Origin: a virus
Lineage: Duplodnaviria > Caudoviricetes
DNA: 64,000 nt
IMG/VR virus record: IMGVR_UViG_3300033073_000738
Span: 32,001 to 96,000 of that record
Reading direction: 5' to 3' (one strand)
In this document: positions 8,601-51,959 of the stretch, piece by piece
Position numbering within the stretch: the first letter of the stretch is position 1
Layout: each line of letters starts with the position of its first letter
Notes under the pieces: generated by a model
Database searches by the model: none
What the model saw: the letters and a program-made list of their open reading frames with translations, nothing else
What the model was told of the DNA's origin: nothing
Position numbers and translations under genes: made by a program

Positions 8601-11600
8601 TTCTGTATTTTGCAATATAGCAGCCTTCTCATCAAGAAGCTCTTGCATACGTTGAAAATACTCATCTTTGATAGAAACCACTGTGTTCAACTCAAGCCAT
8701 TTCTTATACTGCTTGCTATTCTCACCCAGTTCAAGTTTCTTCTTATCATCTATCTTACGGAACATCTCCTCATCAATATAGTCGTCATAAAGCTTCTTAG
8801 AGTTTTCTTCATACTTCTCCAAAGCTTCGGCAATCTTTAGAGCATCCCCGGTCTTCATCTTATTCTTACTGTCCCGTTTTTCTTTTAGAGAGTAATATCT
8901 CTCCCATACTGATTTGATATCCTCTAGGTCAGAAGGAGATATTTCACCAGAAGCCCAGGCTTCTTTAGAATATTGCACCTGTATTTTCCTCAGGTCATCA
9001 AAAATGGCCCCTGTTATCTCACGTATTGTCTTGGTCTCTCCCTGGAAACTAACTGTCTGCTCAAGAGGAGCTGTCAGTTTATAATACTCTTCTGTATACT
9101 GTGACTCAAAATACTTCAGCTCAAAATCCTTCTTGGCTTTCTTAGCTGCTTTGATCTTGTCTTTGTCTTTCTCAGTCTCAGCATCTACCAGATTCTTCTG
9201 CAGAACAGCATAGTCATAATAAAGACGCTCGTCAAACTCACTCTTGAAGAACATCTGCTGCATCTCTTTACCATTATATGGATTGAGTACAGTGGTTATA
9301 TACACCAAACTTTCGTTCATCTTCTTTTGGTCAAGACCTCTGCCATACACTTGAGCACGCTTATTAAACTCAACTGAAGTGTTATCCCTCAGTTCTTTAT
9401 TCATCAAACGAACTCTGTCCAGGGTGGCTTTTAACTTCTTTGCAGCACCTGCTAATATGATATCAGGGTTGGATATTGTAGCTACAAGTTTACCAAAGAA
9501 CCAACCCACATCACCCTTGTCACCTTTTAAGAAATCAGTTATAACTGCTTCACTGGGTAGGTCAGCCATTTCTTGACGCAGTTTCTCCTCGAGTTTTTTG
9601 TCACCCCTTTGTTTGACAGCGACAATCATCTCTTGATACTCCCCTTTAAGATTACCTATAAGGTCATCAGAAAAACTGGTCTGCAACATCTTAGCAATAG
9701 TGGGCTCAATACTTGCAACATAGTCTTTACGAATCGCCTGGATAACCCCTATCAGTTTAGTAAGATGACTTACCACCGGATTATTCTGGTCAGTTGTTTC
9801 CATGTATCCCAGTAGCTCTTCAAACATTGTCTGATAACCAATAAGAAAATCTCTCATCTTACTGAGCTCATTTAACCTTTGACTTGCTGACTTGGTATCT
9901 GTAGGAGTAGTATTACGAAGCTCCTCAAAAGCTTTACTTACAGACTCTATTACAGGCACTGATAGATCCAGAACAGATAGAAAGTTCTTCTGTATCATCT
10001 CCATCTTGGACGCATCGTCGTTTTCCAACATACTTTCGAGTGTGGTCTTCAAGATGTCCTCTTGTACTCTCAGACTATTGGTTCTTGTACGTTGGTCAGT
10101 AATGAGGTCAAGTATCTTTTGTGCGTCCTTGTTCTTGGTAACAAAGTTTCTGAGCTGCTCCAAACGAGCTGTAGATTTTGTAAAAGCTTTCATAAGCTTT
10201 TCTCTGCTCATCTTATTCAGAAACGCCAACCGCTCATCAGGAGTAAGCTCTACTGTTTCACTATTAGCATCTTTATCCAGGTCAAGATTGGGAAACAAAT
10301 GGTTACCCAAACGAGTATCAAACTTAGAAGGAGGCATTTTCTCTACAGCAAACTTGTCAATCATGTTGGTCTTCTCATCCAACATATAGGGTATACCAAT
10401 GATCGCTGTATCACCCACGTTAAACCCGGCTTCCATAAGAAGCTTCTTGTATAAGGTAAGCTGCTGACCCCATTTATCAACCAGTCGACGTTTCTTGTTC
10501 TTGAGTTCATTCAATACACCAGGTTCATTCTTTACCCCGTCTTTTGACAAGAGTCGTATAACACTATGGAACTCCTCCAAAATAGTGTCTTTGTTGTCAG
10601 CTCTCTTTCTTAGATACTTGTTCTTAAAGTCATATATCTCAAGACTACCGTCAGGACGAATACGAATGATGTCAATGATGCCACCCATTTTAGAGTTACC
10701 TACAGCCACCTCATTAAGAAGTATAGACCCGTCGCTACGTAGCTCTTTAAGTACATCAACAATACCGTCTTTACCGAATATCATCTTGTTCAATGTCTTA
10801 CGGTCCATCATATTAAAGACAGCACTCAATATCTTGTTCACCTCTTCACCCATATCGTTGAGGTCAATACCTTGGTCTTTGTTAATCTCTTCAATGATTC
10901 TATGCATCGCTGTACCAAAAAGAGTCTTTCTCTTGTTCTCAGATGCCATAAAGAGAAGGTCAACTATCCGGGTAGAATTGTTGGTCATCTTTAACAACTC
11001 TTCCTTTGTAATAGCCTGGTTACTTATCTTGTCTGTAATCAGATCTACCAATGCACGAGCCACCTTTTTGTTGTCACCTAAGTCACCGGTGCTAAGCATT
11101 GTCAAGTCATCAAAATAGAGATCTTCAAAGCTGTCAAGAATAGATTCAATAACAACCGGGTCTTCTAATTCAGAGGTGAAGTCAGAACCCAAGGAGGCTG
11201 TTACAGAACGCAACAAACTACCTTTAACTGTTTTGGTTGTCTTATTACCCTGGTTATCTGTGATAGTCATGTCAAACTCTTCATCAGATGATGCATCAGC
11301 TTTCACAAGCATGTGCTTGTCTTCATCAAATGCTATGCTCGAGTTGAACTGTAGTATCTTCTGAAGAGTCTCTTTCTGCTTTTCATTCATGTTCTGAGCC
11401 TCATAAAAAGCTTTATCTTCATCAGACATCTGATTGTATATCTCATTACTGTTCAGGTTAAGATTGAGGTTGTCAATCTGCTCACTCATGAACATCTCTT
11501 TGAGAATCTCAATAGGGTCACGTTGTATCTTCTTACCCTTGATCCATTCTAATATCTTCTTTACAAGCTTTGTAATGAAGTTATCTTCCGTCTCACGACC

Positions 11601-12377
11601 CCTGGCAGCAATTTCTTTTGCCAGAGCTTCTTTCTTTATCTTGTCAAACCGGATGTTCCCCTTACTGTCTTTGTAGTTGGGGTTGTTCTTATATTGCTCA
11701 AAGGCTTTCTTATACGTATCAGTGCTTCTTATCTTGTCTAAAGCCTCCATAAGAGCTTCATCGTTCTGAGGCATCATATCAAGAAAGAAGTGTAAAGCTT
11801 CTTCTGGTAGAGCTGTATCTTCCAGACCACTTTGTACCATCACCATTCTTTTTGCAAAGTCTGCTATGGCATTGACACCATACTCTTTGATAACGTTGTC
11901 CTGACTAACTACAGAAACCCCTACTCTTTGTAAGAATCGTTTTGCGTAATCAGTCATTGTTAATGAGTCATTGTTATAGTTGAATACCATTCTGTTCCAG
12001 TTGTCCATCACCTTGTCATCAACTGTTACATAGTCTTGCATGTATTCTAATACAGGATAAGTCTCAGAGAATGCAGACAATTGTTGAGCTATATCCGGTG
12101 TGTCTTTTACCTTGTACCAGGTTTTACCCTTATCACGAATAGGTTCAGGATTAATCAGATCTCTTTCAGCAAGTGTTGCTACAACAGTGTCAGCTGAAAG
12201 CTTAGGAAGAGAATCCAAAGACTTCAGTACACCATTATACTTAAGAAGCTCATTTGCTTTGTTAACTGATGGGACAACTCCATTGTTTCTGAAAAAAGCC
12301 AACATTGCTTTATCTTCACCAATCTCACCAACTAACGATTTCCATTCACTTGATTTCTTGTTAGGACAGATTAACAT
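5664..12377 (-). CDS. Giant virion-ejected protein (2237 aa) with a PD-(D/E)xK nuclease-like domain and degenerate zincin-like motif
   Basis: M.xCPN...WK.L N-terminus typical of crAss RNAP-neighbour proteins; PEEALH; GTAMH...E...IDII...IYDFK...QQLTLY; C-terminal hydrophobic helix; position directly downstream of the RNAP. Confidence 0.85.
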   Translation of the reverse strand: MLICPNKKSSEWKSLVGEIGEDKAMLAFFRNNGVVPSVNKANELLKYNGVLKSLDSLPKLSADTVVATLAERDLINPEPIRDKGKTWYKVKDTPDIAQQLSAFSETYPVLEYMQDYVTVDDKVMDNWNRMVFNYNNDSLTMTDYAKRFLQRVGVSVVSQDNVIKEYGVNAIADFAKRMVMVQSGLEDTALPEEALHFFLDMMPQNDEALMEALDKIRSTDTYKKAFEQYKNNPNYKDSKGNIRFDKIKKEALAKEIAARGRETEDNFITKLVKKILEWIKGKKIQRDPIEILKEMFMSEQIDNLNLNLNSNEIYNQMSDEDKAFYEAQNMNEKQKETLQKILQFNSSIAFDEDKHMLVKADASSDEEFDMTITDNQGNKTTKTVKGSLLRSVTASLGSDFTSELEDPVVIESILDSFEDLYFDDLTMLSTGDLGDNKKVARALVDLITDKISNQAITKEELLKMTNNSTRIVDLLFMASENKRKTLFGTAMHRIIEEINKDQGIDLNDMGEEVNKILSAVFNMMDRKTLNKMIFGKDGIVDVLKELRSDGSILLNEVAVGNSKMGGIIDIIRIRPDGSLEIYDFKNKYLRKRADNKDTILEEFHSVIRLLSKDGVKNEPGVLNELKNKKRRLVDKWGQQLTLYKKLLMEAGFNVGDTAIIGIPYMLDEKTNMIDKFAVEKMPPSKFDTRLGNHLFPNLDLDKDANSETVELTPDERLAFLNKMSREKLMKAFTKSTARLEQLRNFVTKNKDAQKILDLITDQRTRTNSLRVQEDILKTTLESMLENDDASKMEMIQKNFLSVLDLSVPVIESVSKAFEELRNTTPTDTKSASQRLNELSKMRDFLIGYQTMFEELLGYMETTDQNNPVVSHLTKLIGVIQAIRKDYVASIEPTIAKMLQTSFSDDLIGNLKGEYQEMIVAVKQRGDKKLEEKLRQEMADLPSEAVITDFLKGDKGDVGWFFGKLVATISNPDIILAGAAKKLKATLDRVRLMNKELRDNTSVEFNKRAQVYGRGLDQKKMNESLVYITTVLNPYNGKEMQQMFFKSEFDERLYYDYAVLQKNLVDAETEKDKDKIKAAKKAKKDFELKYFESQYTEEYYKLTAPLEQTVSFQGETKTIREITGAIFDDLRKIQVQYSKEAWASGEISPSDLEDIKSVWERYYSLKEKRDSKNKMKTGDALKIAEALEKYEENSKKLYDDYIDEEMFRKIDDKKKLELGENSKQYKKWLELNTVVSIKDEYFQRMQELLDEKAAILQNTESVKLAEVNRELNLLTRPYKDRDGIVKAQLMSSEKKIKMKQLEEERTSLMDSSDNISINGYTPEEQETLAKENMKKKLGHPYNKYLIASIHKEAEVRRLLRSESDPDYALKVARLKEINAELGTMRTMSESKYYIEEMQHQMELFAEARGISVDELNEDASLYEEFTNTPWYLENHNIEYFKLYEDDEDVKKSESPIYAWKRFEPNAKYLDRKPGLQYRKRVMKESYTNEKGEEVQLMNNENRDVLNRFKPKANDVYRKQYGVDHPYRLKDFVDLETKMRNKTATAAEKVDYENLLYISTSTLAAQEDIELSQRLGLAVPFMEKTLTERTIETKGENIKQGVNSRAESIIQGIRRKFSRTDQDIDQTGTSESSISDLQLMATIDNNQAKFVPVRFSRRGEAENASYNVWSGFLNYNASINRKKELEKELAFVNGLEEILADTQNQPKSEASNMVINKVFKKYMPELKQKINEGGNTRLEVLRSFINSVMYNEEYFKGFDVLGVNTQKTVSQLMALTSYTTLGIAPFNWTVNWMSGNIQNIVEAAGGQYFNMSQFTRDKAMLFKGDDKHGSVVNDMMADYGKLGNRSFWGQVFEVFDPIQGEFENEYGHNTNFSKVKNPFQLGIFSGKIFGEWEIQSSAFISFLKNIKVYQGKMIDKETFVNEKLGDRENMSLEEITNKRLEALKEFDALDTNLLDVMELDKQGKLVVKDQFKDVFEFGSQQFSDYVAKLHAMQKKINGSYAKIDKTYAEKTSIGRMMFFFRKYFIPLGLNRLGVRRVNYESMSVEEGFYLTFFRTFVKDIAKMKLNIVANWNNYSEHEKRAIKKSLADAGFVLSIILLYHLALGYDPDDPDRFKKLRKKSWGSQSALYVLLKVKSETEQFLPGFNIQELKRIWSNPSMLLSEANSYIKMGNLMISHTLDVLPGFDYQKQLYYQKDVDQSGLKDEGDSKLLAEIVNSFSGYTGKTFHPIDAVKGFESLNR

Positions 12378-12385
12378 GTTCAGTA

Positions 12386-15300
12386 TTATTTAATTTTACC
12401 AAGACAACTCATACGATTAAAAAACTCTTCAGCTGATTCATTCTCAAGCTGCTCCTTCTTATAAAGGTCCGCTATCTGTTCTGCAGACATGCTGAAACTC
12501 AATGTTGAATCCACCATCAATTTGGTGAAAGCTCCCACAACATCAGTTGTAGTGGCTCTATCAGCACTTGCTGTTGCTTTACCAAAGTTGTTAAAGATGT
12601 TTCTACTTTTAGCTGCAGCATCTGCCAAGTCATTCATCATATTTCCACTATGACCCTTGACCCATTTTATAGATACAGAACCACCGCTGGCTTCGATCTT
12701 CTTTATAAGATTCTCAGCAGCATTTACAAGAGTTATGATGTAAGCTTCCTTTGCTTTCCAAGGCTTAGGTTCTCTTTGCTGACTTCCTTCACTGTAGTTC
12801 CATAACCCGTTATAGTTTACAGCCCCTTTGTAATCCTGGTTGATTACAATGTGTTCACCCCCTACATTTGCAAAATGGGTAAGTACAGACACCAGGGCCA
12901 TCATTTCCATGGTAGGATTACTAAACTTAGCATCTGGGTGCAGCTCTTTCAATCGTTGCACCTCTTTACTTTCTTCTGTACCAGATAGATCATAAACTTG
13001 ACCATTTGCTTTGAATACAGCACCAAACCCAATCTTACCGGTACCCTTGATGTCAGACCCATCTGAGTAAACTTGCAATGGATTCTCTTTAGTGGAAAGT
13101 TTAGTTGGTGTAACAGATTTATCTGAAGACTCATATTGTTTATAAATAACTAACTCTCTACCAGCATCTTTCTTAGACTCTTCAATCCATCCAATTAATG
13201 CAGTGTAACCATTAGCAATCATGGCTTTTGTAACAGCATCATTACTTTCTTTTATCGAAGAGAATACCTTATTCTCAAGAGCTGCTCGTTTAATTAACAT
13301 AAACTTACTTTGTCCTTCTTCTGTTGTAGCATCTAATGTTGTTGCAGGCTCATAAGATACTTCTACCGTTGTCACTTTACCAGAACTTCCTATTTCTTGA
13401 AATGGTCTATCTAACGCATAATAAGTACCACCACCTCTTTGTGCATAATTAACCTTAGAAGAAAATGTATCCGATGTTCTAAAGGCTTTAACTGTAACAG
13501 TTGCTTGCTGTTTAATAGTAGTTGTAGCAGGTTTGACAACATCAGATTTACTCCATCTTGAATAACCATCAAGTCTTTCTTCTGTGTAACCCTTTAGCTT
13601 AAGATAGGATGCAATAAGTTGATCAGAAAGATTACCCTTAGCGTATTGATTACCCACTCTAAACGATGCACCGGCTGCAATAGCTTTTTCCAAAAGTGAT
13701 TTGTATTTACTACTAAGAGTTTCTTTGATCTGAGCTTCTGTAACACCTCTAAACAACCCACTACCAGATACCATCACTACATCAGATGCGGTATAGTTTC
13801 CAGTATTTGCTTTACTACCCCAGGCTTGACGATATTTATCTGTAGAACTAATGGAAGCATTACCAGACTTATATCCTATAAACTGAGTAGATTCCTGAGC
13901 CATCTGAATGTCTTTACCTGCATTACCATACATATCAGTAGGTTTGACACCTGCCTGTAGTAGCGGGTTTTCTTTAACAGTATCTTGTTGTTGAGATGAC
14001 ATCAACCCAGCTTTTTGTAAAGCTTCTTTTATAGCCGGCATGTTAGATCTAGTGGCATCAGTTCTTACTGTGGCTTGTCTACCAAGACTAACATCCTCAG
14101 AAGGCAATACAAGTTTGATATTATCTGTAGCAGAAATAGTTTTAATCAGAATAGGTAGTATCTCCTTTACAGACCCTTCACCATGACCAAGACCAGCTAG
14201 TGGCAGAAGTATTGTCTTGTCTTTATTCTCTCTTGCATATACAATGATCTTACGCAGACCGCTTTTCATCAACTCAACATTGTTACCTGTCACTGATTCA
14301 GAATAAGCCCCTTTACCAGGTTTTCTGGTAGAAGGTTCATTACCCTTAACTGGTAGTTGTATCACATTGTCTTTGATCTTGAATTCACCGTCTCCACGTG
14401 TAATCAACCCTTTAGATGCAGCAGCTTGTGCTAACCCAGCACCATGTACACCTTCTAGGTTTGTAGTGATTACAGGAATACCTTGCATTTGGAATATATC
14501 TCCCTCTACAACTTTCTCAGATTGATTTTGAATTACCTCAAACTCAATAGCTGCAGCACCAGGTAAGAATTTATCAATCACATTAACATCTTCTGCTCTC
14601 CAGCCTTCTTTGTGCCAAGTACCTTTCCACCCAGGTGAACCTTTGGGATGTATAGCAGTGACACGTGCATACACTTCTTTCTCTACTTTATAATCAGAAG
14701 TTGTACTAATGTGCCTTACAATATCTCCCACTTTTACATTATATTTATCCATCTCTGTATTTGACCTTGTTGTACGAGTACGGAAACCATGTATTATCAT
14801 ATCAATACTTGTAGGATTGGGCCCCAATGCATCAATAACTTTTTGATTAGCCGTAACTAAACTACCGAAACTCATAACCCCACTTACCTTGTTCTGTGGA
14901 ATATCAGCAACACTTGCTATAGATTTCTGAGCAACTGGTGTAGGCAATAACCCTTTCTCTTGTTTAGATGCCCACTCTAAAGGTATACTAGAGTACCACT
15001 TACCTTTTGTTGCTATTTCACGAGTGAGGGTTTGTTTAGAACCTTTACCAAAAAACGTGGGATTATTACTGCCAAATTTAGAATAAAAATCTCTATAGAC
15101 TGTTTCTTTATACAATCTTTTCTGTTCAGAATCTTTTCTTTCATCTACACTTTTCTGAAACTCATCTACAGCATACCCATACAGCTTATTTATAAGACCG
15201 ACAGGTACAGCTGAAATGTAGCTGTATCTGTTTGAGTTCAATCCGCTCTGGAAAATAGAATACAAAACAAGATCCCTGAAGAACTTTCTTACTTGTATAT

Positions 15301-18300
15301 TGTCTTCATCTGATTGTTCAAGGTTTGCCAGGTTTTCTAATTGAGCAATCACACTCTCTTTCTCTATGGTATTACTGCTGTTCTCAAGAAATCGCCAAGT
15401 GATTACACGAGAGTTTCCTTCACCTCTTTCAAAAAACAGGTTTCTAACAATTGGATATTGTTCTTCAAGAGATGAATACCAGTCTTTTTTCTTGATGGCA
15501 TTCCAATCATCCACCATCTTATTAGACTGAATCAATTCTAACAAATACTCATCAAGTGATTTGTCAGTCTGCCAGTTTTCTTTGAAATACTGTTTCCCTT
15601 CTTCACTACGATCTATGAAGTTTTGCAATACATAATTGACAAAGTCATTCTTAGCTGTGCGAGCAAACTTCAAAAGGTCATCGTTTGTTTTCAGTTTTCT
15701 ATCTTCTGCAAAACCCATCATCAGATAACCACCTTCCTTAAGCAAAAAGTTATTTAACTGAATGTCATTTCTAACAGGGAACAGAGTATTGAGACCTAAT
15801 AGTATCTCTTTTGCTACATTCAAAGGCGTAATTATACTATTAGTAGCAATGTTCTTGACAGTTTCACGAGTCAATACAGACGAAGGTTCGTTAAGATCTA
15901 TAGCTTTTTTATACAATTCTCCTCTTGCAAATACATCAAAACCGGAAGCATAGGGATTGGTATCCCATTTCAAAGCTGTTTGAATGTTAGTTAAAGAATC
16001 TGTGTTATCCTTCAACCCAAGCATCTCTATCAAATATATAAGTTGCTCAAGCTTCATGCTTTCAGAAAGAGTGAATAAGTCTGTACCATCTGGCATCACT
16101 GTTTCTTTCAACTTTTCCTTGCTGAACAACTCATCAGTATTTAGAACATACTCACCTTTAAGTCTATTAATCTTATCGTTAATTACACTTCTTATGGTCT
16201 TTCTGCTTACGCTTTTTGCAACTGCATCTCTTTTTATGACACCCATTTCTTTCATAAGTTCTGCAAGAGCCATTCTCCTAGCTGATACTTTGCTATCTTT
16301 TGCACTATCCAAGAACTTGTTATCATACAAGCTGATCAGTTTGGTATACCTTCTGATGATGGGCTGATTCACAAAGTTCAGTATCTTATCACTTGATATC
16401 CCCATATACTTCATGAAAAACATCAAAGGAGAAAGCTCTGTCACCACATTCACTGCAAACACATAGTCATCTTTAGCCACGTCAACAAACGCATTGATAA
16501 ACTCACTGAAGAACTCACTTTTAAGATTACCATCTTCATCATAAATGCTTGACAAAGACACCTCTTCTATTTTACCCCCTACGGTCTTTTTTATAAACTT
16601 GTTTGAAAACAATGTATTAACCTGTTTGGGGTTCAACTTAGCATCAGAATACTGGAACAATACGTTGAATGTATTAGCAAGAGCTGCAATACCCAGGTCG
16701 TTCTTACCTGTTAATAGACTCAGGAACTTCTTAATGTTCTTTTCTCTATCTAATATCTCTGAGTGTTTGTAGTCAGTCTTTTGTCTTTTAGTACCGTACA
16801 GCTTGTAATAGATTTCGTCTACTATAGGCATTATCTCGTAGTTGGTACTGGGGGTGATAAGCTCAATATAGTTAGCCGGGTGCAGTATCACCTCGCTCAT
16901 TGTATTGATCAGCCTGTTTTGTACAACACTTTTGATGTTGTTGTACTTACTTAAATCAGTGAGGTCACTCTTTTTATAGGGCATATCCATTACTTCCCCA
17001 TCGTAACTTAAAGATGGGTAGAGTATGAACATCTTGTCAATGTCAAAGTCAGAACCGGATTTGATAACAACCTCAGAAGGCATTACAATAGCATCACCAA
17101 ACTGAGCTGGTAGAAACTCTGCTATTTCCATTACGTCCTGGAAGTTCTTACCCTGTGTAGGAATACGATATGCCACCATTTGAACACTCTTTCTATTCTT
17201 GTTCATCCATTCTTCGTCTTTGAGCATCTCGTTCATCCTATGAATAGACTCTATCTTCTTACCATCTTTATGTTTCATCTGTAAAAGAGGTAGCCAGTTT
17301 CTTGTCATACCCACCTTCACCTGCATAGGAGTAACTACTTGCTTTCCATTCACTTCTTTTAGGTCGTAATACTTAAGCTCTGTATTACCAAATGTCTCAA
17401 GAGCACGATCACTGAGTTTTTTAGAATAGTTTATACGCTCCATACCTGTAGTGGCTACTTGTATGAGCATTGTTCCATTTGCCTTATATCTTACCAGGTT
17501 GTTGTTTATAGCAGATATGATGATGCCCTCTATCACCTGAGCTTGCACTGTAGCATCCAGGGGTACAGTGAACTTACCTGTTGCTGCATCATAGTTAAGG
17601 GCCTTGATAACGTTGCTGTCTTGGTTCTTCTTTTTGACTTCTGACAGAAAGTAGTCAACCATCTTCTTGAGGTCGTCCACTTTCAGTTTACCTTCTTCTT
17701 GGCTGAAACGAATCCCAAGCTTATTAAATAGAGTTGCTTTCTCTATTTCTACAAGCTCATCTATGTACCTTTTGTAATCTTGATACAGACCTTTGAAATC
17801 TGGATGTTCCAGATTCATCATGATCAGCTTCCTGATCTGTGAACCAAATACAGAAGTGTCGTGAATCTCTGAGTCTATTGTTACCTGCTCTTTCAAATGG
17901 TTGAAGAACAAAGTGTTTGCACTTTTGAAATCCAAACTCTTGATTAGTTCTTTTCTTTCTTTATCGGTGAGCCCATTGATCTCATTTCTCTCCATACTAA
18001 GAAAAGGAGTAATAGTACGTTCACCGGGATTATTACCATCAAAGCTTTTGTAATAATCATCCATGTCTTTAGGCGTCTCTACCTTGCTACCGCTTTCAAA
18101 CTTTACATACCCATATCCACCAAACTCCATTCTCTTAGCTAGATGCTCATCTGCTGTTCCTTTAATCAATGTAGGAATCAAAGGTTGTATAGAGAACTTA
18201 TCAAATACCGGCACCAGGGTCGTATAACTACCGTTATCTACTGTTCTATTATACTCCATAGGGCCAGCATACTGGAACTTCTTAGGAGGAAAATACACCT

Positions 18301-21286
18301 CAGCTAATGGATCATATCCAACCGCGTCACGTTTCTTTATAAGTTCGCTACGTAACTTGGGGTCTTTTTCTGCGTCAGCAAGTTCATCATAGTGGGCAAA
18401 GTCAACGATCTTCTTATATGTCTCCTCCTGTTCATTCGACCATTGACCAGTAAGAATGGATATATTACGATAGAAGTCAAATGTACATTTACCCTGACCA
18501 TCAGCTTCTGTACCCTTGTATTCATTCTCGATTACAGCTTTAATCTTCTCGTCATAAAGCTTGATCATTTCAGGGCTGAGCAAACCTTTTTCTTTCTTTA
18601 GCTTCTCAATGTTTGCTATAATCTTATCCTTATAAGATGATACAAAGTTGACATCTTTTAACACAGCACTTCTAAATCCAAAATCTACAGACTGACGAGC
18701 TAATGCCTCAGTGTATTCGTTTTTGTTCAAATAACCTTTCTTATACAAACGTTCTATCAAATTCCTACCGGATAGATTTGTGTTTGCACCATACCCTACA
18801 GAGTTTGAGTAGTTATTGAAATCCTCTATCAGGTTCTTATCAAGGGAGGCAAAAATACCTGTAGCTGAATCTTTGGGAGATCGTTTATGAAAGTCTTTGA
18901 AATAGATGGAGTCACCAAAGAATACTTTCATCTGGTCAATATCCATTAAGAAAGTATTAGCCAGGTAGTCATGTATAACGTTGGTCCATGGGTCTTTACC
19001 CATTTGCAGCTCGTCTTTACCAAAATTGAATACTTTAAATCTCTTATTGCTCCACAGTTTCTCAGCAGGTTTCAATCTTTCATAGAACCTCTGAGCATAG
19101 TTGTTCATGTAATCTGTAATCTCATTCTTTACATTGTTATGCAGCTCACTGTTTGGAACCAATGCTACTTCATCAACACTCTTTGCTTTACTTAATATTG
19201 CATCCAGTTTGTCCCTGATATCAGAATCTTTGATGATGTCTTCAAACAAACCCCAGGTATTCAAACTATTTACAGAAGCTCTAGTGAGGTCTTTGAAAAA
19301 CCCTTTCTTAGCCAGGTAACGCATTTGCATAGTGTCCTGAAGATGATCCACCACCTTAGATAGAAATACTTCATTACTAAATATTTTAGCAGTGCTGTTC
19401 TTAAAAAAAGACACTATAGGTCTCTTCTGAGGTAGCTCAAGATTCTTATCAAAATAGTAATCCATCTTTACACCCAGGTCAGTAGACTTATCTCCCAGAC
19501 GTAATACCGAGTTATAGCCCTGCATACGAAATGAGTTGATGTCCTGGAGGAGTTTATCAATGTCATTCAGATCTGTACTACTTGCACCATCTGTATCTTC
19601 CCCTTCTTTCTTAAGCTGTAGACCACCTGTATTGCTTATCTCAAGACGATTGTATTCTCCTTCGGTAGCAGACCATTCTAGTATATTAGTGTCTACATTC
19701 TTCTTTATACGACGACGCTTGCCGTAGTTTTTACTACTGGGGTCAAAAAAGAAAAGAGAATTCATGAACATACTGTTACGTATGGATGGGTTTCTCTCTG
19801 GGTCTAAGAAAGCAAGCGATGGTTCATTCTTTAATATATCTTCTAGAGTGGGATACTTCTCAAAATCATTAAGAGCATTGTTGATAACAGTGAAGTTATT
19901 GTGCAACTGTAACGCGTGCATCCTGTTTCCCTCTGAGGTGATGACGTTACGGTCCATGTTATAACTCTTGTTGTATTTCAACTCCAATGCTATAAGATCT
20001 TTGATAAGGTTGTTTTGACCGTCGCTAATCTTCTTTGATACCCATTTACCTTTTTCTTGAGTTCTGGTATAAAGATCCTGGGTAACAGCTTTAAGGGGGT
20101 TTGTTATAAACTTATCATCTTGTATATTCCTTACAACTGCAAGAAAATGATTGTATATATACTGAAAAGCAGTTGTATAACCCTGACCTTTAGGTCCTAG
20201 AGCTCTACTCGACATCAGATGCTTTTCTGTCTGTGGAGAAAACTCAAATCCCAGACCTTTTAAAAATGACAATTGAGTTGCTTTTAAAGACGGCCCATCT
20301 ATATTCTTGAATATATCTTCCAGTCTTTCTATAGCATTCTTATTAATCTCCCATGCACCATTGTTATTGTCAGCAAGATTCACCTCAGTACCATCTGGTA
20401 GAGTGATGGGCATACCCACCCTATTGAAGTTAGCTTCAATCTTCATTTGATAACCAGAGGTCTTACCGGTAGCTGCCATGAAGTTCTTCAACAACCCATT
20501 GTCTTCTAAGCTCATTTGATATATAGGCATAAAAGCCTTGGCAAATGAGTTCCTGAAATTGATTCTGAACTGCGTCTCTTCTTTTGTATGGTCTTTCTTG
20601 TGTTTCAGCTTGTCTATAATCTTGCTGTACTGAGGTATGTCATTTACATACTTTTCCATCTTAGTAATGATCTGGTCAAGACTTGTAGAGTTCTCTACAT
20701 GAGTCATCAGATTCCTTACAAAGTTGGAATAGTTTACAGAAGATGTAAATCCATATTCATCAAACACCTCGTCATCTTGTAGGCTCCTGATGAAAATCTC
20801 AACAGATTTGTCTACATCATCCAATGGATCTATCTCATTAGCTGACACATCAAAGACCATTCTTTGTATGGCTTTATCGTCATCACCTATTTGAGTGAGG
20901 TCTACCAACCCGTCTTCGCCGGTCACCAATTTATTACGAAGCTCAAATACCGTAGAGAACTTAATGAAGTTAGCTTGAACACTTTTCCATGAAGCTTGTA
21001 TCTCAAGAAGATTTGTGACAATCTTCTTAAACTCTTCTGCATTCTCAGTGTCACCAGATGCTTCAAGACTTGCAACTTTAGCTGCATAGCTTTGAATGTA
21101 CTGAGGCAACACTTTGTCTCTTACTGAATTCAATAAGTTTTCAATAACACTCTTCTTATTCTTTCCTACAAGGTCAAATACAGAAACGCCTTCTTGTTCC
21201 ATAGCACGAAACATGAAGTATTCCAATTTGGAAACAACCTTGACCATTTTGTCTTTCGTAATCTCAAGTGAACAGTTAGCAGACAT
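12386..21286 (-). CDS. Virion RNA polymerase (double-psi beta-barrel, phi14:2 gp66-like) with C-terminal multidomain extension ending in RNase HI
   Basis: SGSDFDIDK (DFDID at 17036-17050), YRIPTQG and ADGQG motifs. ATG at 21286 preferred over TTG at 21295. Confidence 0.93.
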   Translation of the reverse strand: MSANCSLEITKDKMVKVVSKLEYFMFRAMEQEGVSVFDLVGKNKKSVIENLLNSVRDKVLPQYIQSYAAKVASLEASGDTENAEEFKKIVTNLLEIQASWKSVQANFIKFSTVFELRNKLVTGEDGLVDLTQIGDDDKAIQRMVFDVSANEIDPLDDVDKSVEIFIRSLQDDEVFDEYGFTSSVNYSNFVRNLMTHVENSTSLDQIITKMEKYVNDIPQYSKIIDKLKHKKDHTKEETQFRINFRNSFAKAFMPIYQMSLEDNGLLKNFMAATGKTSGYQMKIEANFNRVGMPITLPDGTEVNLADNNNGAWEINKNAIERLEDIFKNIDGPSLKATQLSFLKGLGFEFSPQTEKHLMSSRALGPKGQGYTTAFQYIYNHFLAVVRNIQDDKFITNPLKAVTQDLYTRTQEKGKWVSKKISDGQNNLIKDLIALELKYNKSYNMDRNVITSEGNRMHALQLHNNFTVINNALNDFEKYPTLEDILKNEPSLAFLDPERNPSIRNSMFMNSLFFFDPSSKNYGKRRRIKKNVDTNILEWSATEGEYNRLEISNTGGLQLKKEGEDTDGASSTDLNDIDKLLQDINSFRMQGYNSVLRLGDKSTDLGVKMDYYFDKNLELPQKRPIVSFFKNSTAKIFSNEVFLSKVVDHLQDTMQMRYLAKKGFFKDLTRASVNSLNTWGLFEDIIKDSDIRDKLDAILSKAKSVDEVALVPNSELHNNVKNEITDYMNNYAQRFYERLKPAEKLWSNKRFKVFNFGKDELQMGKDPWTNVIHDYLANTFLMDIDQMKVFFGDSIYFKDFHKRSPKDSATGIFASLDKNLIEDFNNYSNSVGYGANTNLSGRNLIERLYKKGYLNKNEYTEALARQSVDFGFRSAVLKDVNFVSSYKDKIIANIEKLKKEKGLLSPEMIKLYDEKIKAVIENEYKGTEADGQGKCTFDFYRNISILTGQWSNEQEETYKKIVDFAHYDELADAEKDPKLRSELIKKRDAVGYDPLAEVYFPPKKFQYAGPMEYNRTVDNGSYTTLVPVFDKFSIQPLIPTLIKGTADEHLAKRMEFGGYGYVKFESGSKVETPKDMDDYYKSFDGNNPGERTITPFLSMERNEINGLTDKERKELIKSLDFKSANTLFFNHLKEQVTIDSEIHDTSVFGSQIRKLIMMNLEHPDFKGLYQDYKRYIDELVEIEKATLFNKLGIRFSQEEGKLKVDDLKKMVDYFLSEVKKKNQDSNVIKALNYDAATGKFTVPLDATVQAQVIEGIIISAINNNLVRYKANGTMLIQVATTGMERINYSKKLSDRALETFGNTELKYYDLKEVNGKQVVTPMQVKVGMTRNWLPLLQMKHKDGKKIESIHRMNEMLKDEEWMNKNRKSVQMVAYRIPTQGKNFQDVMEIAEFLPAQFGDAIVMPSEVVIKSGSDFDIDKMFILYPSLSYDGEVMDMPYKKSDLTDLSKYNNIKSVVQNRLINTMSEVILHPANYIELITPSTNYEIMPIVDEIYYKLYGTKRQKTDYKHSEILDREKNIKKFLSLLTGKNDLGIAALANTFNVLFQYSDAKLNPKQVNTLFSNKFIKKTVGGKIEEVSLSSIYDEDGNLKSEFFSEFINAFVDVAKDDYVFAVNVVTELSPLMFFMKYMGISSDKILNFVNQPIIRRYTKLISLYDNKFLDSAKDSKVSARRMALAELMKEMGVIKRDAVAKSVSRKTIRSVINDKINRLKGEYVLNTDELFSKEKLKETVMPDGTDLFTLSESMKLEQLIYLIEMLGLKDNTDSLTNIQTALKWDTNPYASGFDVFARGELYKKAIDLNEPSSVLTRETVKNIATNSIITPLNVAKEILLGLNTLFPVRNDIQLNNFLLKEGGYLMMGFAEDRKLKTNDDLLKFARTAKNDFVNYVLQNFIDRSEEGKQYFKENWQTDKSLDEYLLELIQSNKMVDDWNAIKKKDWYSSLEEQYPIVRNLFFERGEGNSRVITWRFLENSSNTIEKESVIAQLENLANLEQSDEDNIQVRKFFRDLVLYSIFQSGLNSNRYSYISAVPVGLINKLYGYAVDEFQKSVDERKDSEQKRLYKETVYRDFYSKFGSNNPTFFGKGSKQTLTREIATKGKWYSSIPLEWASKQEKGLLPTPVAQKSIASVADIPQNKVSGVMSFGSLVTANQKVIDALGPNPTSIDMIIHGFRTRTTRSNTEMDKYNVKVGDIVRHISTTSDYKVEKEVYARVTAIHPKGSPGWKGTWHKEGWRAEDVNVIDKFLPGAAAIEFEVIQNQSEKVVEGDIFQMQGIPVITTNLEGVHGAGLAQAAASKGLITRGDGEFKIKDNVIQLPVKGNEPSTRKPGKGAYSESVTGNNVELMKSGLRKIIVYARENKDKTILLPLAGLGHGEGSVKEILPILIKTISATDNIKLVLPSEDVSLGRQATVRTDATRSNMPAIKEALQKAGLMSSQQQDTVKENPLLQAGVKPTDMYGNAGKDIQMAQESTQFIGYKSGNASISSTDKYRQAWGSKANTGNYTASDVVMVSGSGLFRGVTEAQIKETLSSKYKSLLEKAIAAGASFRVGNQYAKGNLSDQLIASYLKLKGYTEERLDGYSRWSKSDVVKPATTTIKQQATVTVKAFRTSDTFSSKVNYAQRGGGTYYALDRPFQEIGSSGKVTTVEVSYEPATTLDATTEEGQSKFMLIKRAALENKVFSSIKESNDAVTKAMIANGYTALIGWIEESKKDAGRELVIYKQYESSDKSVTPTKLSTKENPLQVYSDGSDIKGTGKIGFGAVFKANGQVYDLSGTEESKEVQRLKELHPDAKFSNPTMEMMALVSVLTHFANVGGEHIVINQDYKGAVNYNGLWNYSEGSQQREPKPWKAKEAYIITLVNAAENLIKKIEASGGSVSIKWVKGHSGNMMNDLADAAAKSRNIFNNFGKATASADRATTTDVVGAFTKLMVDSTLSFSMSAEQIADLYKKEQLENESAEEFFNRMSCLGKIK

Positions 21287-21288
21287 TA

Positions 21289-24200
21289 TTAACAAACTTT
21301 AGTATAAATAGTATTTAGTTTCGGAGCAAAGAACTTCTTCTTCTTAGGAGGATTGGGTATGTTAATAGGTGCAGCATTTTTGCTGTCCTTACTCACCTCA
21401 TCTGTCTTATTCTTGATTGAGTTGGGGTCATCTACAACCTCTTGCTCTGTAATTGGAGCAGGTGCTTTGTAGTTTAGATCTTTGGGTGAAACAAACTCAA
21501 CAATAGAATTGTAACGCTTCAGGTTATTTACATCAGGTATATCCTGGAATGTAACCTTTAGACCAACTTCGTTAATCAAAAAGTCCTTGAAGTTCTTCTG
21601 TACAAATGTAACTTTTTTAACACCATCCTGCTGGTCTAATACCGGAAACATAAACGGCACAACACCGTTGAACCATTGTGAATAGATATTTATAGGCAAC
21701 CTACCAATGTAGTTCATAACCTTCTTGAGATTGTTCTCATCCACAATAACCTTTTTAGAATTCTTGTCCAGTGTGAATATATTATACGTAACACGTTCCT
21801 TGTTTTCTATAATGGTTACATCCTGTAGATTATTACTAATCCTGAGGTTATATTTGTCGCCGGTCAACCAGATGTTCTGTACAAACATTCTTAGGTTGTT
21901 ATATATACCACTTTCTGCAGGTATCTTCTTCTCCAGGTTTCTTTCTAAGAATGTTCTAATAATAGCAAATGTATAGGGAACAAAAGCAATCTCTTGGTCA
22001 TTAAGTTCTACCCTAGCATTTCTTGAAAAAGGAGGAAGCAAACCACGTCTGTTGATAGCTCCACTGGCATCTTTAATCAAGGCATTTAGTTCACCTGACT
22101 CTTTGTTTATTACAATGTCCACATGATCTTGACTAAGTTGTCTCCTAAGCTCAGGGCTTGTCAAAGTATTTGGTGAAGATGTTGCATTAAGTAATGACAC
22201 ATCTTTAAGATTCATTACACCTGCTGTAATCCTATTCAGTCTAGCAATCTTTGTACGACCATCTTTCACCTCACTGACCATCTTGTCATAAGCCTCTTTT
22301 GCATTAGGGTCAAGCTTATTCTCAACTACGGCATTGCTGAACTCGTTCAACATGTTGAAATAGACAATCTGATTCTCTCCACTTTCTCTCAAACCTTTGC
22401 TGTCTTGAAGATTGTTCTTGTCGATCACACCCACTTGTTCACCCTCTTTATTGAATATGATGGGGTTGCCGTCTTTATCAGATATATAACCAATGACGTC
22501 GCTGCTATACTCCAGGTCGTACATTGTTGAATCACTACCATCCCAACGCAACATTGAATTGTTCTTGGTGATAGTGACCCTGTAATCTTTTAAAGACTCC
22601 ACAGGCTTAATATGAAGCTTGTTGATTATATCTCTCACCTTGTGATAGTAGCTTGTAAAGTAGTTACTCTCCACCGGCTCACCTGTCTCAACATCATAAT
22701 ACAAATCATTAGACGTGCTTCTAAATGGATTCTCATTCTGAGCTGACTTGTCAGAAGCTAATGGTGTTCTCAACACAAGCATGTAATCAAGAGGCTTCAT
22801 AGAACCAGAAGCAACCTCGTCTTTGAATGTAGAAGAAGCTTTTACAACTGGTATACCTGATTCTTTCTCTTCTTCACTAGGCACTTTGAACTCAAACTCT
22901 ATCTTCTTCTGTAGTTCTTTAGATATGGGAATTCCAAAATAGTCTTTTAGAGCTGCGTTTATCTTTTGTTCAGTGGCTTCAAGTTTAGACTTGTCAAATA
23001 AACCACCTCTATCTACCCATTGTAGGAAGTCCATCACCTCATTGTTAGTATCATATATGAGTTCTTTGAGATTATTACTTCCCTTGGTTACACTCAACGC
23101 ACCCACTTTAATCAGCTTACGGATCTGCTTTACATCACCAATAGCAGAATATACCTCACCATAGTTCTCAACAGCAACAGCAGGATAACGTGTTCTCAGC
23201 TCACCAAACACTCGACTGAAACCCATTTTAGATAGTTTCTTAGCAGCCGTATATTCTTTCTCAAAACTATTGAACTCATCCACACTTCTAAATCCAAGTG
23301 AGGGAAGTTTGAAATCTGGTGTTACCTGGAATGCATTCTCTTCCAAACTGTACATACTAGGGAACATACTGTACCCTTCCATTACATCACTCATGTTGCC
23401 GCTTGCATATGTTCCATTCTCATCTAACGGACCCATGAGTTCACGGATGTACTCAGCTACAGTATCTTCTATAAGAGGAATGTATCCATTCTTTTCAGCA
23501 AGCTTTGTCAATACAGCTTCAACCCTTGCTTGTGACCTAACACGACGAGGATTGTTGCGTCCCAGGGTGTAGATCTCAAACTTAGACATCCCTGTAGCAT
23601 CAGTTACATAATAATATGTACGACCTTCCACCTCAACACTAAAAGCATGTTTGAGTTTGTTCTTATATTCCTCTATACGGAAGCGTCGCTTGTTAGCTGT
23701 TATAGCACTTGATAATGTATCATACTCAGATTCAGATATAGCATCTTTTGAGTATAGCTTTTTGAATTGCTTTCTTAGTTGGTCAAGGTCTGTAAGAGAT
23801 TTTGCTAAACCAATCTTCTCCAGCATTTCACCGGATGACGTGTTTAGTATCTCAGAGGTGAGATTCAACACTTCACTCAGTGCAGTTTCATCTGTCATTA
23901 CACCAAGTTTCTCCAAGAGTTTCTTGATGAAATCCATGAACACCTGCCAGGTAGTCTTCTTAGAGTTAGCATAAGGTATCTTAGCTAACAGATATTGAAA
24001 CGCGGGGTTGGTAAAAGCTTCTGTTACAAACTCCCTAAGTTGCTCGTCAGGTGATAAGTCACTATTAAAAGCATAAAAATGACCGGCCAGTTCAGAATTC
24101 TTTACAGCATTGTATACAGATCTGAGTGCCCTGGTGTATTCACTTTTAGGATCAGCAATAGCTGTCTCTATCTGCTTATGGATTAACTCATGCAGAATGA

Positions 24201-27200
24201 CAGTTTCTAAAGCACTACTTGGATATCCTTCCCTATAGGCTGTAGCTGAGAGGTCGATGTTAATCTCACCGGTCTCTGGGTCAAAATCACCTACACCTTC
24301 TATTGTATTATCAAACTTGATGGTGTCTGAGTCATTGAACAAAGACATCATATTTCTTGCAAGAAGCTTCTCAGTATCTGTAGCAAAGTCACTGTCAATA
24401 ATAAACTGCAGAGCTTGCTTGATACCAACCTTGTCATCTTTAGCCCCAATAGCTTTCCTAAGGTCTTCCTCGTTTCTTAAATCAGTCGCGTCTTTAGGAC
24501 GAAGACTAAGGAATGCTAACTTATCTATACTTATCCCAGATTCATTGTACACCAGATTGCCACCCATGTCTACAGACGTAGATGAGAAACCGGTTGCAGC
24601 TTTGAATTTAGTCTTGATATCTTTTAACAGCTCCTCAGAAAAGTCTTTCACCTGTGCAATCTGACCGTTGTCTAATACGGGTGTCACTCCAGGATTCTCT
24701 ATAATATCAGCTATTTGGTCAAACGTAAGTTTAACACCGGAGTCTGTATTACCAACCGCACTCTGAGCTTCAATCATTGCTGTAAGCAATATCTTTATAA
24801 GGTTGGTTCCAGTATCAGCATTCCACATTTTTGCTGTAGCCAGCTCTACTATCGGCAACCCAACTTGTGATGTCTTAGCACCTTTTTGTATACTGTCGTA
24901 AATAGAAAGTATCTCGTTTTTGAAAGCATTCAGGTCTTTGCTAGCTTTAGGACCAGACAAAAGCTTTTCAAACATACTCATGGTTGCAGTATCCAGGAAC
25001 TCATCAGCATTCTTTATACCATTTGTTATAGCGTTCTGTTTTCTTTCCTCAATACTTTGAATGATGTTCAATGTATTGGCATCACTCATGTTGCTGTTGA
25101 TCTGCTTTCTGAATTCCTTATACTTACTATATTGTTCGTCACTGATTTCTATGGTCTTATTAAAACCAAACTCATTCAGGATATCATCTACAGTGTTGAT
25201 GGACTTGTCTGCAAGAACGTCTCTTACCTTTTCTTCGGCCACTTTATAGACATCACTTGACTTACCGCCCTCATTTGAGTCTTCATATAGATTCAAAATG
25301 AGTTCCTGTAACTCTTTCTCATTTGCCTTATCTCGTGGGTTTTTTACATATTTCTCAGCAGCCTTGTTAATCTGAAGAGCAAAGATTCTCGACACACCCA
25401 GATTAATCAGCTCACTGGCTGTACTAAGTTGATTACGACTATACTTTTTAAGGTCATCATCACCAATGGTACCACTCGCAATCATGTTATCTATTGCCTC
25501 AGACTGACCAAAAGTTGCATCAACATCAATAGGTACCTTTCTGTTTCGTTTGTTTACAGTGGTGCTAAAGTCCCTTTTGATCTCTGTGGCTAATACAAAT
25601 TCTCCACGGAGGCTATTCAAATCAGCAGCTTTCTGTTTGAAATTCTCAAGCCTTGTCTTGATAATCTCTATATATCTTTCCCTGTCTTTGATGTATTGGT
25701 CTAACAAAGGACTACCGCTGCCAGCTACACTGGTCATGCGTTTTTTCAGTTCATCAACCCTTTTGTCAATAGCTTTACGATATGCGCTCTCAAAATAAGC
25801 TATCACCTCATCTTTAAACGAAGGGTCAAGCTCCATGTCCAATACTTCAAATATCTTCTCAACAGCGTCAGTAATTAACAAGTTGGGCTTGTTGAATACG
25901 CTGTCGATAAACAACTTGATCTTCTTTGCATCCTTTGATATCTCCCTTCTCTCTAGTTCTTTGACGGCTTTACTTAACTTCTCTTTTAATGGCACTTTAT
26001 ATTTAGACTGCACACCTGGCTCAAGCTGATTGATTAACAGTTGCATCTTAAGCCACAAAGCTTCTACAGCTTTTCTTGTCGCATCAGGAGAAGAAAGCAA
26101 AGCATTCATCTCACTTATCAGATCGTTATACTGATTGACAAATTCACGTGAGGTTTCAGAAAGTGGTTTGCTTTCGTTACCACCTTGCTGGTTCTTTTTG
26201 TTACGTTCTGTCAACTTGTTGACTATCTCATCAGCTTGTTTATCATCTATCTGACCACTGAGAATACCTTCCTCAAGCTTCTTCTCTATATCTGATTGAG
26301 GGACACCATCAGCAATATCCTTAAGAATACTCTGAAAGAAGTTGACTTTAGAACCTCCACCGCTTTGTCCTCGTTGATTACCACCCGGACTACTACCAGG
26401 TTGTTTACCATCTAGATCAGCTAATTCTGCATCATACAAAACTTCCCCTTTTTTAGCAAGAATTTTTCCAGTTCCATATTCTTTTACCTCATCTTGAGAA
26501 ATAACTTGTTTTATAATATCAATACTAACATATCCTTCAGGAGTTAGTACTTCATTACTCATTAATGTTTCAATTCTAGTAGTAGTTTTACTACCATCAA
26601 TTAAAACAATTATGGGATTTACAGCCTTTTGAAGAGCAGCTCTAATTAATGATCTCCTTCTTTCTATATCAGACAATGGTGTAGTTGCTGTAGATTGTTT
26701 ACCATCAAATGCAGCTAACTTTGCATCAATTTCATTCTTAATTTTATCAGCAAGAATCTGACTATAAGACTTGTTTTTACCATTGATTACTTCATCTTTT
26801 CCAATTGAAGAATCTAATAGCTTATCTCCATAGAATTCTTTAGCTACTTCTAAAGCTAATTTTGCATCAGCTTCAGTATAACCATGCATCACAACCTGGT
26901 CACTTAATGCAGGACCTTGAGCTTCCAGATCTTGAAATATCTTAACTCCCCCATTATAACCCCTCTCTTGAAGTTTCACCATAAATTCTTTAAGAACTTC
27001 TGGCGAAAAATCATTCAGGTCTTTTAGAGAAAAATAGCTTTTATGCGTAACGCTATCATTATCATTTGTACCGTTGTTAATAGAGAAGAACAACCAAGAA
27101 TTTGAATCCTTTGTGCCGGATAAGAGTCTTACATTTTTAGCAAGATATCTTTCTACTTGTGGTTTGTCCACAATAGACATCATTGCATTATAAAAACTAT

Positions 27201-33500: not shown

Positions 33501-33603
33501 TGTTTTGCTTTAAACGTAGTATATCCCCTATCGCTTCTATAGGTGGTGTGTATAGCTCGGTAGGAACGAAAGCTTCTTTAGCTGATACAAGATAACTTGG
33601 CAT
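30535..33603 (-). CDS. Virion cargo/ejection protein (1022 aa)
   Basis: N-terminal LKQNRYDQ...VDLSLPQN pattern, helical, no Cys seen; synteny before the three giant genes. Confidence 0.7.
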   Translation of the reverse strand: MPSYLVSAKEAFVPTELYTPPIEAIGDILRLKQNRYDQAWSQANSMYRGILDAPLLSSHGEAKRQQFLKQADQAIQHLSTVDLSLPQNQQMANDVFKPFWEDGRLVKEIGLVKKTQSEIAFGEQMRTSTDEKVRAQYNPFSIQDLNNLNSDIKNSTPEELDKLNVRNYVKKVDIAKEMDQMIKDLGITNAQVRESPNGGGYKLVDMYGKESVLPLTDFFTSSLSTDARAYLQMMGRLQGHSSFEIALEQTNGDKAAARQMVADDIIRQRKESLEKGVIPEYSSAIGDAESKIRTIVAQREATGAGLSADDEEIIKQYTEAIAGYKTKLKESSDLLAGLKDKNSEVYQKHSDLYSTSEGYNEAYTSTIVGQYASSWAKSRANFLNSHKSEADAAWKGIQDVMTARMGIQARMEVADMNNDTKMEIADLKARTAARKAAIAKGEAVDDTPLYMGRGPQSNMKMTKAEEWKNMYQKVDEIAGDAAIRVFETTLNNKINLPFVNKLYEGVKAGMGDKAFFSKNDQSPEYKIFKDAIDKGQLKLEPGRTYNWTYKEVLDFIKKNTVDYMATEEHKADVQAMGGMTEDIKNLIAMGDIYRGLQADAKKVDEKILAQDKYKGYTVNENGHLRIGTADELVGEITIPMRNQDGQMENVKVSDILLNRRSINTESDNGVYVLGSGTTGRTYTSTININGKIYNHLSSSPNLMTSLKDGKVNEVSQMINQPMLQKLEELRADYNKDFERLAPSLQFSTPDFQRKNDMFNYGVVRYTARNEKSLSEPAEVAMAQLFSDDNFNNRYNSFYGVSQADLKEDSSFMKVVRSVASNLPNMSSKKDGFSLDVYAYDTEAGRPVYKPVIDKKTIAESLGLSLDKLNEDVDMNAAVDKFMKTFKVAAPPGMQPGDIFTGLSPIATLVRDAPYSSPDYLDNLKMGKFSIKHLPAGGGFQVSSYVYTLDPKTKEFVKTPTTITNHDESTDVDELLRVMYGSLYHVSEMNQQTRKANVQANPEAMTSIVRMKEQLKKQGININ

Positions 33604-33637: not shown

Positions 33638-33685
33638 AAAAAATCCTAAAGGTTTACCCTGCCATGGATAAACCTTTGAGGTTTA
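33638..33685 (-). terminator. Hairpin(s) with T-tract after the 1093-aa gene (terminator or operator)
   Basis: aaaggttta/taaaccttt inverted repeat (33648-33677) plus an overlapping palindrome taaacct-ttg-aggttta (33669-33685). Confidence 0.55.
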
Positions 33686-50827: not shown

Positions 50828-50837
50828 TTATAATGTA

Positions 50838-51296: not shown

Positions 51297-51308
51297 TGGT
51301 TATTATAT

Positions 51309-51938: not shown

Positions 51939-51959
51939 TTTAATAAAGTATAATAGAGT

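Follow-up and report, generated by a model that had tools for sequence, protein, structure and literature searches.

Conserved cysteines at the facing ends of crassvirus cargo proteins suggest head-to-tail linkage of the virion RNA polymerase to its partners

The DNA analysed here is a 64-kb stretch (the window) of the 121-kb IMG/VR virus record IMGVR_UViG_3300033073_000738. It includes three consecutive genes for giant proteins, designated A, B and C, of which B encodes a virion-type RNA polymerase (RNAP). The few cysteine (Cys) residues of these proteins lie almost exclusively at the ends that face each other across the two gene junctions. The same terminal-Cys rule held in every crassvirus family and clade sampled, whether or not the genes adjoin, and where neighbouring genes are fused the facing Cys pair is lost. 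What is directly observed is where the Cys residues lie, that they are conserved, that facing pairs disappear on fusion and that the rule does not depend on gene adjacency. In the explanation that is favoured, and that is considered probable though far from assured, head-to-tail disulfides join the three proteins into a cleavable pseudo-polyprotein.

All coordinates given without a locus name are those of the window, and all window genes described here are on the minus strand. Gene A (21289-30525) lies upstream of the RNAP gene and encodes a protein of 3078 amino acids (aa). Gene B (12386-21286, counted from the ATG) encodes the 2966-aa RNAP, and gene C (5664-12377), downstream of it, a protein of 2237 aa. 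A has a single Cys, Cys3078 (codon at 21292-21294), which is its last residue and the proposed donor end of junction 1; the proposed acceptor end is Cys5 of B (21272-21274). B has two further Cys residues, Cys934 (18485-18487), internal and part of the sequence GQGKC, and Cys2961 (12404-12406), which is sixth from the end and the proposed donor end of junction 2. The only Cys of C, residue 4 (12366-12368), lies within the family motif M-x-x-C-P-N-K and is the proposed acceptor end of junction 2. Thus, four of the five Cys residues in the 8,281 aa of A, B and C are at the two junctions, and the outer ends of A and C carry none. This distribution had been described in the original prediction, and on recomputation all of the Cys positions and coordinates given there were correct, as was the statement that the free outer ends lack Cys.

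The five consecutive cargo open reading frames (ORFs) A-E, which include genes D and E upstream of A, contain 5 Cys in 10,396 aa (0.048%), as compared with 136 in 10,026 aa (1.36%) for the other called ORFs of the window. The frequency in the cargo ORFs is therefore far below that in the other window proteins, as was looked for under Cys suppression of the type known from N4 gp50. The depletion is specific to the cargo genes, as shown by the muzzle protein encoded nearby, which has 27 Cys. If five Cys residues are placed at random, the probability that at least four fall in the four 8-residue junction-facing ends is ~1e-9, in a test that was chosen post hoc; it is the comparative data, and not this probability for the window, that carry real weight.

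B is recognised as a crAss-type virion RNAP from its match to phi14:2 g066/gp66 ('Catalytic RNA polymerase subunit'; tblastn E 2e-16) and from its DFDID catalytic motif (residues 1413-1417; 17036-17050), in which D1413, D1415 and D1417 are invariant in the family. By position, A is the counterpart of phi14:2 gp67 and crAss001 gp47, and C that of phi14:2 gp65 and crAss001 gp49; neither A nor C matched any curated family in Pfam or PHROG. The window thus shares with phi14:2 (gp67-gp66-gp65) and crAss001 (gp47/gp50/gp49) the arrangement of an RNAP between two giant proteins and an identical terminal-Cys rule. It differs in that its genome is larger and its cargo far diverged: A and C have no PHROG match, and identity in the RNAP core is 22-24%. 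In the structural atlas of crAss001, gp47, gp49 and gp50 are cargo proteins detected in virions by mass spectrometry (PMC10172136), and the annotation notes of the phi14:2 record report the same detection for its cargo proteins. Judging from homology and synteny, A, B and C of the window would likewise be carried in the virion and enter the host.

Relatives of A, B and C were found only through protein searches and an alignment. At the DNA level, neither gene junction had a match among 50,697 phage records, and a single-sequence scan of IMG/VR found no relative.

A search with the RNAP core gave 120 homologues of 1,841-5,061 aa, with 333 Cys in a total of 397,103 residues. A Cys was present within the first 8 residues in 96 of them (at positions 2-8, mostly 3-5) and within the last 8 residues in 112, as compared with 0.30 proteins expected per end at the interior Cys rate of 0.032%. 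Exactly two Cys residues, both terminal, were found in 40 of the 120. In an alignment of 29 close relatives of B, C5 and C2961 are invariant, and C934 is present in 24. Each of the 10 homologues of A has one Cys and no more, at position -1 or -2 from the C-terminus, and a Cys within positions 3-6 is present in each of the 24 homologues of C; C4 and P5 of the motif are invariant in the close C family. Among ten IMG/VR loci examined, every complete locus with separate A, B and C genes has all four junction Cys residues. The pattern spans >150 homologues at 25-70% identity, and such counts indicate that it is not due to chance. A complete absence of conserved Cys, as in proteins of the N4 gp50 type, was not found, the terminal Cys residues being invariant in the family.

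The rule is equally evident in cultured and classified crassviruses. In phi14:2, gp67 has Cys 1797 as the last of 1797 residues, gp66 has just two, Cys 3 and 2179 (of 2180), and gp65 has Cys 3 only. In crAss001, gp47 has Cys 2339 (of 2341), gp50 has Cys 5, 1334 and 2404 (of 2412), and gp49 has Cys 5 only. The same was found for DAC15, IAS virus, p-crAssphage, crAss002, cr8_1, cr271_1, FpV4 and seven Suoliviridae. In a few gut phages, for example cr272_1, the interior is not poor in Cys, and the terminal pair is still kept.

In crAss001, DAC15, cr116_1 and IAS virus, gene A is on one strand and genes B and C are on the other, and the C-terminal Cys of A and the N-terminal Cys of B are kept. Both TGT and TGC are used as junction Cys codons. 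Given the use of both codons and the independence of the rule from gene adjacency, a DNA-level or translational-coupling cause is excluded, and selection acts on the protein. It had been proposed that the proteins are joined C-terminus to N-terminus in gene order; the direction of pairing is supported, but gene order is too narrow a description in view of the four phages with A on the other strand.

The number of junction Cys residues follows the architecture of the locus. It is four where A, B and C are separate (A/B/C), two where A is fused to B (AB/C), two where B is fused to C (A/BC), and zero where all three form one protein (ABC). In the AB/C phages FpV4, cr50_1, cr125_1, cr52_1, cr118_1, cr109_1, cr272_1 and cr273_1, the fused protein has no N-terminal Cys and keeps the C-terminal one (at position -50 in cr273_1), with a Cys at positions 3-6 in the protein that follows. 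The only Cys of the 4287-aa AB protein of FpV4 is at 4286. In the A/BC phages p-crAssphage, crAss002, cr8_1 and cr271_1, of which crAss002 fits only with gp33 starting at Met33, the Cys of A is at -2, BC starts with M-S-C or has Cys 5, and the C-terminus of BC has no Cys. The single ABC giants of loci L021, L022, L023 and L026, which have no separate A or C gene, lack terminal Cys; two of the four, of 4286 and 4714 aa, have no Cys at all. Nine metagenomic RNAP proteins have a single Cys, near the C-terminus, and the DFDxD motif of most is located past residue 2,950, where a fusion to A would put it. Neither these nine nor AB of FpV4 retain any Cys at the internal junction.

Thus, each fusion removes exactly one head-to-tail pair, consisting of a C-terminal Cys and the N-terminal Cys facing it. 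This pattern favours pairing of a C-terminus with the next N-terminus over cyclisation of B, since cyclisation would lose one member from each of two pairs. Tabulated in this way across crassviruses, the Cys residues of the RNAP-locus genes behave as had been anticipated, being conserved at the junctions, never present at the outer ends and lost as a facing pair on fusion.

Several details of these loci were recorded on the way. The annotated start of crAss002 gp33 (locus L009, 12644-12760) places its first Cys at residue 35, and an in-frame Met33 gives M-S-C-T-P, similar to M-S-C-G of p-crAssphage gp44. Most likely, the start is annotated 32 codons too far upstream and Met33 is the true one. 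The cargo genes of loci L003, L006, L031, L033 and L034 have uninterrupted reading frames only under a code in which TAG is a sense codon; there are 70 in-frame TAG codons in AB of cr109_1 and about 37 in AB of cr272_1, and the terminal-Cys rule holds under the sense reading. FpV4 encodes, two genes upstream of its AB fusion, a 598-aa protein (L004, 3266-5062) with a single Cys at residue 5 (M-K-K-K-C), for which no C-terminal Cys partner is evident on the neighbouring proteins. In cr116_1 (L029, 17594-20935), an ORF for a 215-aa LAGLIDADG homing endonuclease lies directly after the Cys-stop end of the RNAP gene, between B and C. In locus L014, gene C appears split into parts of 928 and 1278 aa (at 8560-8710) with no Cys pair; this break was rejected as a real junction, since it is a frameshift beside an A-run with homology continuing in the next frame, and it is probably an assembly error.

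A precedent for a bond of the proposed kind comes from cyanopodophage A4, in which cryo-electron microscopy showed that the C-terminal helix of gp27 occupies a gp26 cleft and that a disulfide, Cys1715-Cys5, joins the two proteins (PNAS 2025, PMC12002296). In the A4 (Anabaena phage A-4L) record, the two genes are consecutive, Cys1715 is the only Cys of gp27 (1717 aa), and Cys5 is the only one of gp26 (1114 aa). As at the crassvirus junctions, a near-C-terminal Cys is followed by a near-N-terminal Cys on the next protein and interior Cys residues are few or absent, although the bond itself has been seen in A4 only. The N-terminal sequence M-S-K-H-C of A4 also resembles M-S-K-R-C of crAss001 gp50. 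A4 belongs to another phage family with another host, and it has one link between two proteins, with no RNAP in the chain; the parallel would be one of mechanism, not of family. The authors neither present the bond as a general feature nor connect it with gene fusions, and release by a redox change is not discussed (PMC12002296). The mechanism had been put forward as one of which no earlier description was known; in part, however, it is already on record, the A4 structure including a disulfide between the C-terminal and N-terminal Cys of consecutive ejection proteins.

Suppression of Cys in ejected proteins is known from the N4-like phages (Schitoviridae; N4 gp50 and DEV gp71/72/73), where the rationale given is passage through the periplasm with its disulfide-forming enzymes (PMC11445570). 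These phages share with the window a giant virion RNAP and companion ejection proteins that are near Cys-free as compared with the rest of the proteome. They differ in that Cys is wholly absent, the rare ones being dismissed as annotation errors, whereas in the window family every junction-facing end has a Cys of its own that is positively conserved. Drobysheva et al. (10.1101/2020.03.07.982082) noted that other crassviruses encode AB, BC and ABC as fusion polyproteins. These have the same modules in the same order as the window, with a peptide bond in place of the Cys pair; they are covalent from synthesis and presumably separated by proteolysis, whereas a bonded Cys pair would be reducible.

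The crAss001 atlas reports virion disulfides in the tail and portal vertex, in proteins other than the cargo, and suggests that extrusion order is probably set by packing and mutual interactions of the proteins (PMC10172136). It does not mention disulfides of the cargo proteins, and the word cysteine is absent from it. Neither 'Cys' nor 'disulf' occurs in the preprint on the phi14:2 RNAP (10.1101/2020.03.07.982082), and a literature search found no paper describing the terminal-Cys rule in crassviruses.

The ends concerned resemble one another. Donor ends consist of a probably helical stretch, the Cys and then 0-5 residues; acceptor ends consist of Met, 1-4 residues and then the Cys. The last 30 residues of B, including Cys2961 (12389-12478), form a conserved tail in the profile of relatives, with a mean top-residue fraction of 0.57, as compared with 0.14-0.16 in the preceding 400 residues. 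Being conserved behind ~400 barely alignable residues, this tail looks like a docking motif. A complex prediction with residues 1-600 of C and residues 2895-2966 of B gave a score of 0.29 (mark 0.34), which speaks neither for nor against binding, and when B residues 2696-2966 were modelled with AlphaFold from the single sequence, the predicted local distance difference test (pLDDT) value was 35, too low for use.

The C-terminal third of B (residues ~2430-2966, 12389-14000), to which the tail belongs, is a swap zone for accessory domains. In the window this hypervariable region carries an RNase H domain (residues 2737-2894, 12605-13078; Pfam PF00075, E 1.6e-10; phrog_531). AlkB-like (PF13532), PF18760, PF13671 kinase, DUF1768 (PF08719) and SF1 helicase domains are found there in relatives, and the same Cys tail follows behind all of them. 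The swap-zone domains may be enzymes that are co-injected with the RNAP.

In the favoured explanation, A, B and C would be cargo of the kind that relatives pack in the capsid and that is thought to be expelled through the tail. Their interiors are kept near Cys-free, as in other ejected phage proteins, with one Cys retained at each junction-facing end. The C-terminal tail of an upstream protein would dock on the N-terminal part of the downstream one, and the two thiols would then oxidise in the finished particle to form an inter-protein disulfide. This would give the linear chain A-S-S-B-S-S-C, in which the side stubs are just a few residues long. Such a chain would have the same topology as the AB, BC and ABC polyproteins of related phages, for which it would be a reversible stand-in, and it would fix both a 1:1:1 ratio and the order of exit, falling apart in the reducing cytoplasm of the host. 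For crassviruses, the docking, a threading in the unfolded state, the role in ejection and the reductive release are all proposals, and the disulfide chemistry is putative, its direct precedent being A4. It is an even question whether, more broadly, across Crassvirales and their unclassified relatives, Cys pairs and gene fusion are interchangeable ways of joining the virion RNAP to its partners, the former giving a disulfide pseudo-polyprotein of 6,000-8,000 residues that passes as one thread in fixed order and is released in the reducing cytoplasm.

Several points weigh against this explanation. The cytoplasm of the host is reducing and the gut lumen anoxic, so that the time and place of oxidation are unclear. 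The structures found for this group of proteins are limited to gp66 alone (6VR4), with none for relatives of A or C. The disulfides reported for crAss001 come from purified virions, and A4 gp26, gp27 and gp28 show no detectable homology to A-E of the window by blastp (best E 0.048). Cys934 of B is a third Cys and a possible competitor for pairing. Loss on fusion would be equally expected if each Cys merely needed a free terminus. On a tree built from 117 RNAP cores, the state of the N-terminal Cys undergoes at least 8 changes. When loss of this Cys was tested against a long N-terminal side, with the position of the motif standing in, crudely, for fusion, 6 independent pairs had support, too few for significance. 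On average ~3.4 of these were as predicted, 0 contrary and ~2.6 without difference (sign test p ~0.125). There are also soft exceptions among individual proteins. The C-terminal Cys is at -13 in L025 and, in cr273_1, at -50 within a disordered acidic tail. The fit is not clean in L027, where the only Cys of the giant protein is at -67 and an 804-aa protein with C-x-x-C comes next, and in cr116_1, where an extra 833-aa protein before C has Cys as its last residue and no Cys at its annotated N-terminus.

Docking of the ends head to tail without a disulfide, with the Cys residues serving for packing or as ligands of a shared metal and oxidised only on exposure to air, would account for much of the above. 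The conservation, the fusion pattern and the conserved tail of B fit docking of any kind, and the natural surroundings of gut crassviruses are anoxic. A packing role, however, needs no Cys in proteins that otherwise nearly avoid it, and two thiols alone are a poor metal site, no conserved His having been found beside the Cys in the terminal sequences examined. In the only solved example with this signature, A4, the Cys residues form a disulfide (PMC12002296), and docking of the non-disulfide kind is considered rather unlikely. Disulfides with other partners, such as A-A or C-C homodimers, cyclisation of B with A linked to C, or links to the capsid or portal, are judged unlikely as well. Sequence alone cannot assign the partners in the A/B/C class, and B has a Cys at both of its ends. 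Nevertheless, the AB/C and A/BC phages keep exactly one C-terminal and one N-terminal Cys, on consecutive proteins, and fusions delete a complete head-to-tail pair, contrary to what cyclisation predicts. The outer ends never carry Cys, the all-in-one giants have no terminal Cys, so that a peptide bond replaces the role, and the A4 link joins two different proteins.

The terminal Cys residues might instead have no part in linkage and act at free termini as a signal for packaging or processing, or control the RNAP after entry as a redox switch. A signal that needs a free end would be lost on fusion, and the crystals of phi14:2 gp66 captured it in a self-inhibited form that has to be activated (10.1101/2020.03.07.982082). 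Such roles leave unexplained why Cys residues are confined to junction-facing ends and the outer ends bare, and the all-in-one giants have two free ends yet no terminal Cys; a role of this kind is therefore held to be quite improbable. Chance, a DNA-level constraint at the junctions or wrong start codons could be suspected from the window itself, which has only 5 Cys in these proteins, the more so as metagenomic start calls can err. Against the extent of the pattern among homologues, the use of both Cys codons, the conservation with gene A on the other strand and a family consensus that begins at the called Met in the B and C alignments, they have next to no credibility. Four further candidates were rejected: lipidation at a lipobox (there is no signal peptide), an N-terminal nucleophile hydrolase (which leaves the C-terminal Cys and the loss on fusion unexplained), a split intein (the Cys residues are at the wrong fragment ends) and in-frame read-through from A to B (the genes are in different frames).

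If head-to-tail disulfides do join the cargo, the enzyme that starts infection would be released by a redox trigger, and the signature shared with an unrelated cyanophage would point to a general, convergent design among ejected phage proteins. Crassviruses, the most abundant phages of the human gut, have to store and deliver close to 1 MDa of protein, among it the polymerase with which transcription starts. For how this is done, a conserved tether from end to end would offer a concrete and cheaply testable answer; it would explain why the cargo genes occur fused in every combination and would link entry to the redox state of the host. The rule is also of use in annotation. With it, start codons can be corrected, as in crAss002 gp33, false gene splits recognised, and cargo proteins picked out in phages without a match to any known family, of which the window phage is one.

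The order of genes at the window locus is muzzle, a 1009-aa ORF, E, D, A, B and C, and the phi14:2 layout matches. The muzzle protein (39994-45516; 1840 aa; Pfam crAss_MUZ, E 1.2e-25) marks the tail end of the structural block. Gene D (30535-33603; 1022 aa) is directly upstream of A, and gene E (33683-36964; 1093 aa) is upstream of D; both proteins have 0 Cys and no Pfam or PHROG match, and judged from position alone they are probably further cargo proteins. In A, an HExxH motif at residue 2112 (residues 2108-2116, 24190-24204) lies beside a weak SprT-like match (residues 2086-2117) whose E of 0.066 does not reach the Pfam cut-off. A zincin-like protease has been reported among the RNAP-associated proteins of crassviruses; in the window phage it would sit in A and not in C.

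The 1009-aa ORF (36968-39997), between the muzzle gene and E, has peptidase-like PHROG matches, to L-alanyl-D-glutamate peptidase and endolysin families, as well as a DUF3597 match. Its product has two Cys pairs, 145/150 and 664/667, and may be an ejected cell-wall hydrolase with metal sites. Thioredoxin (PF00085) was not found in the 121-kb genome, in which other oxidoreductase families were not searched for. Three adjoining ORFs at 49505-53428 are the opposite of the cargo genes in being rich in Cys, with 3.6% in 440 aa, 3.8% in 209 aa and 4.9% in 411 aa.

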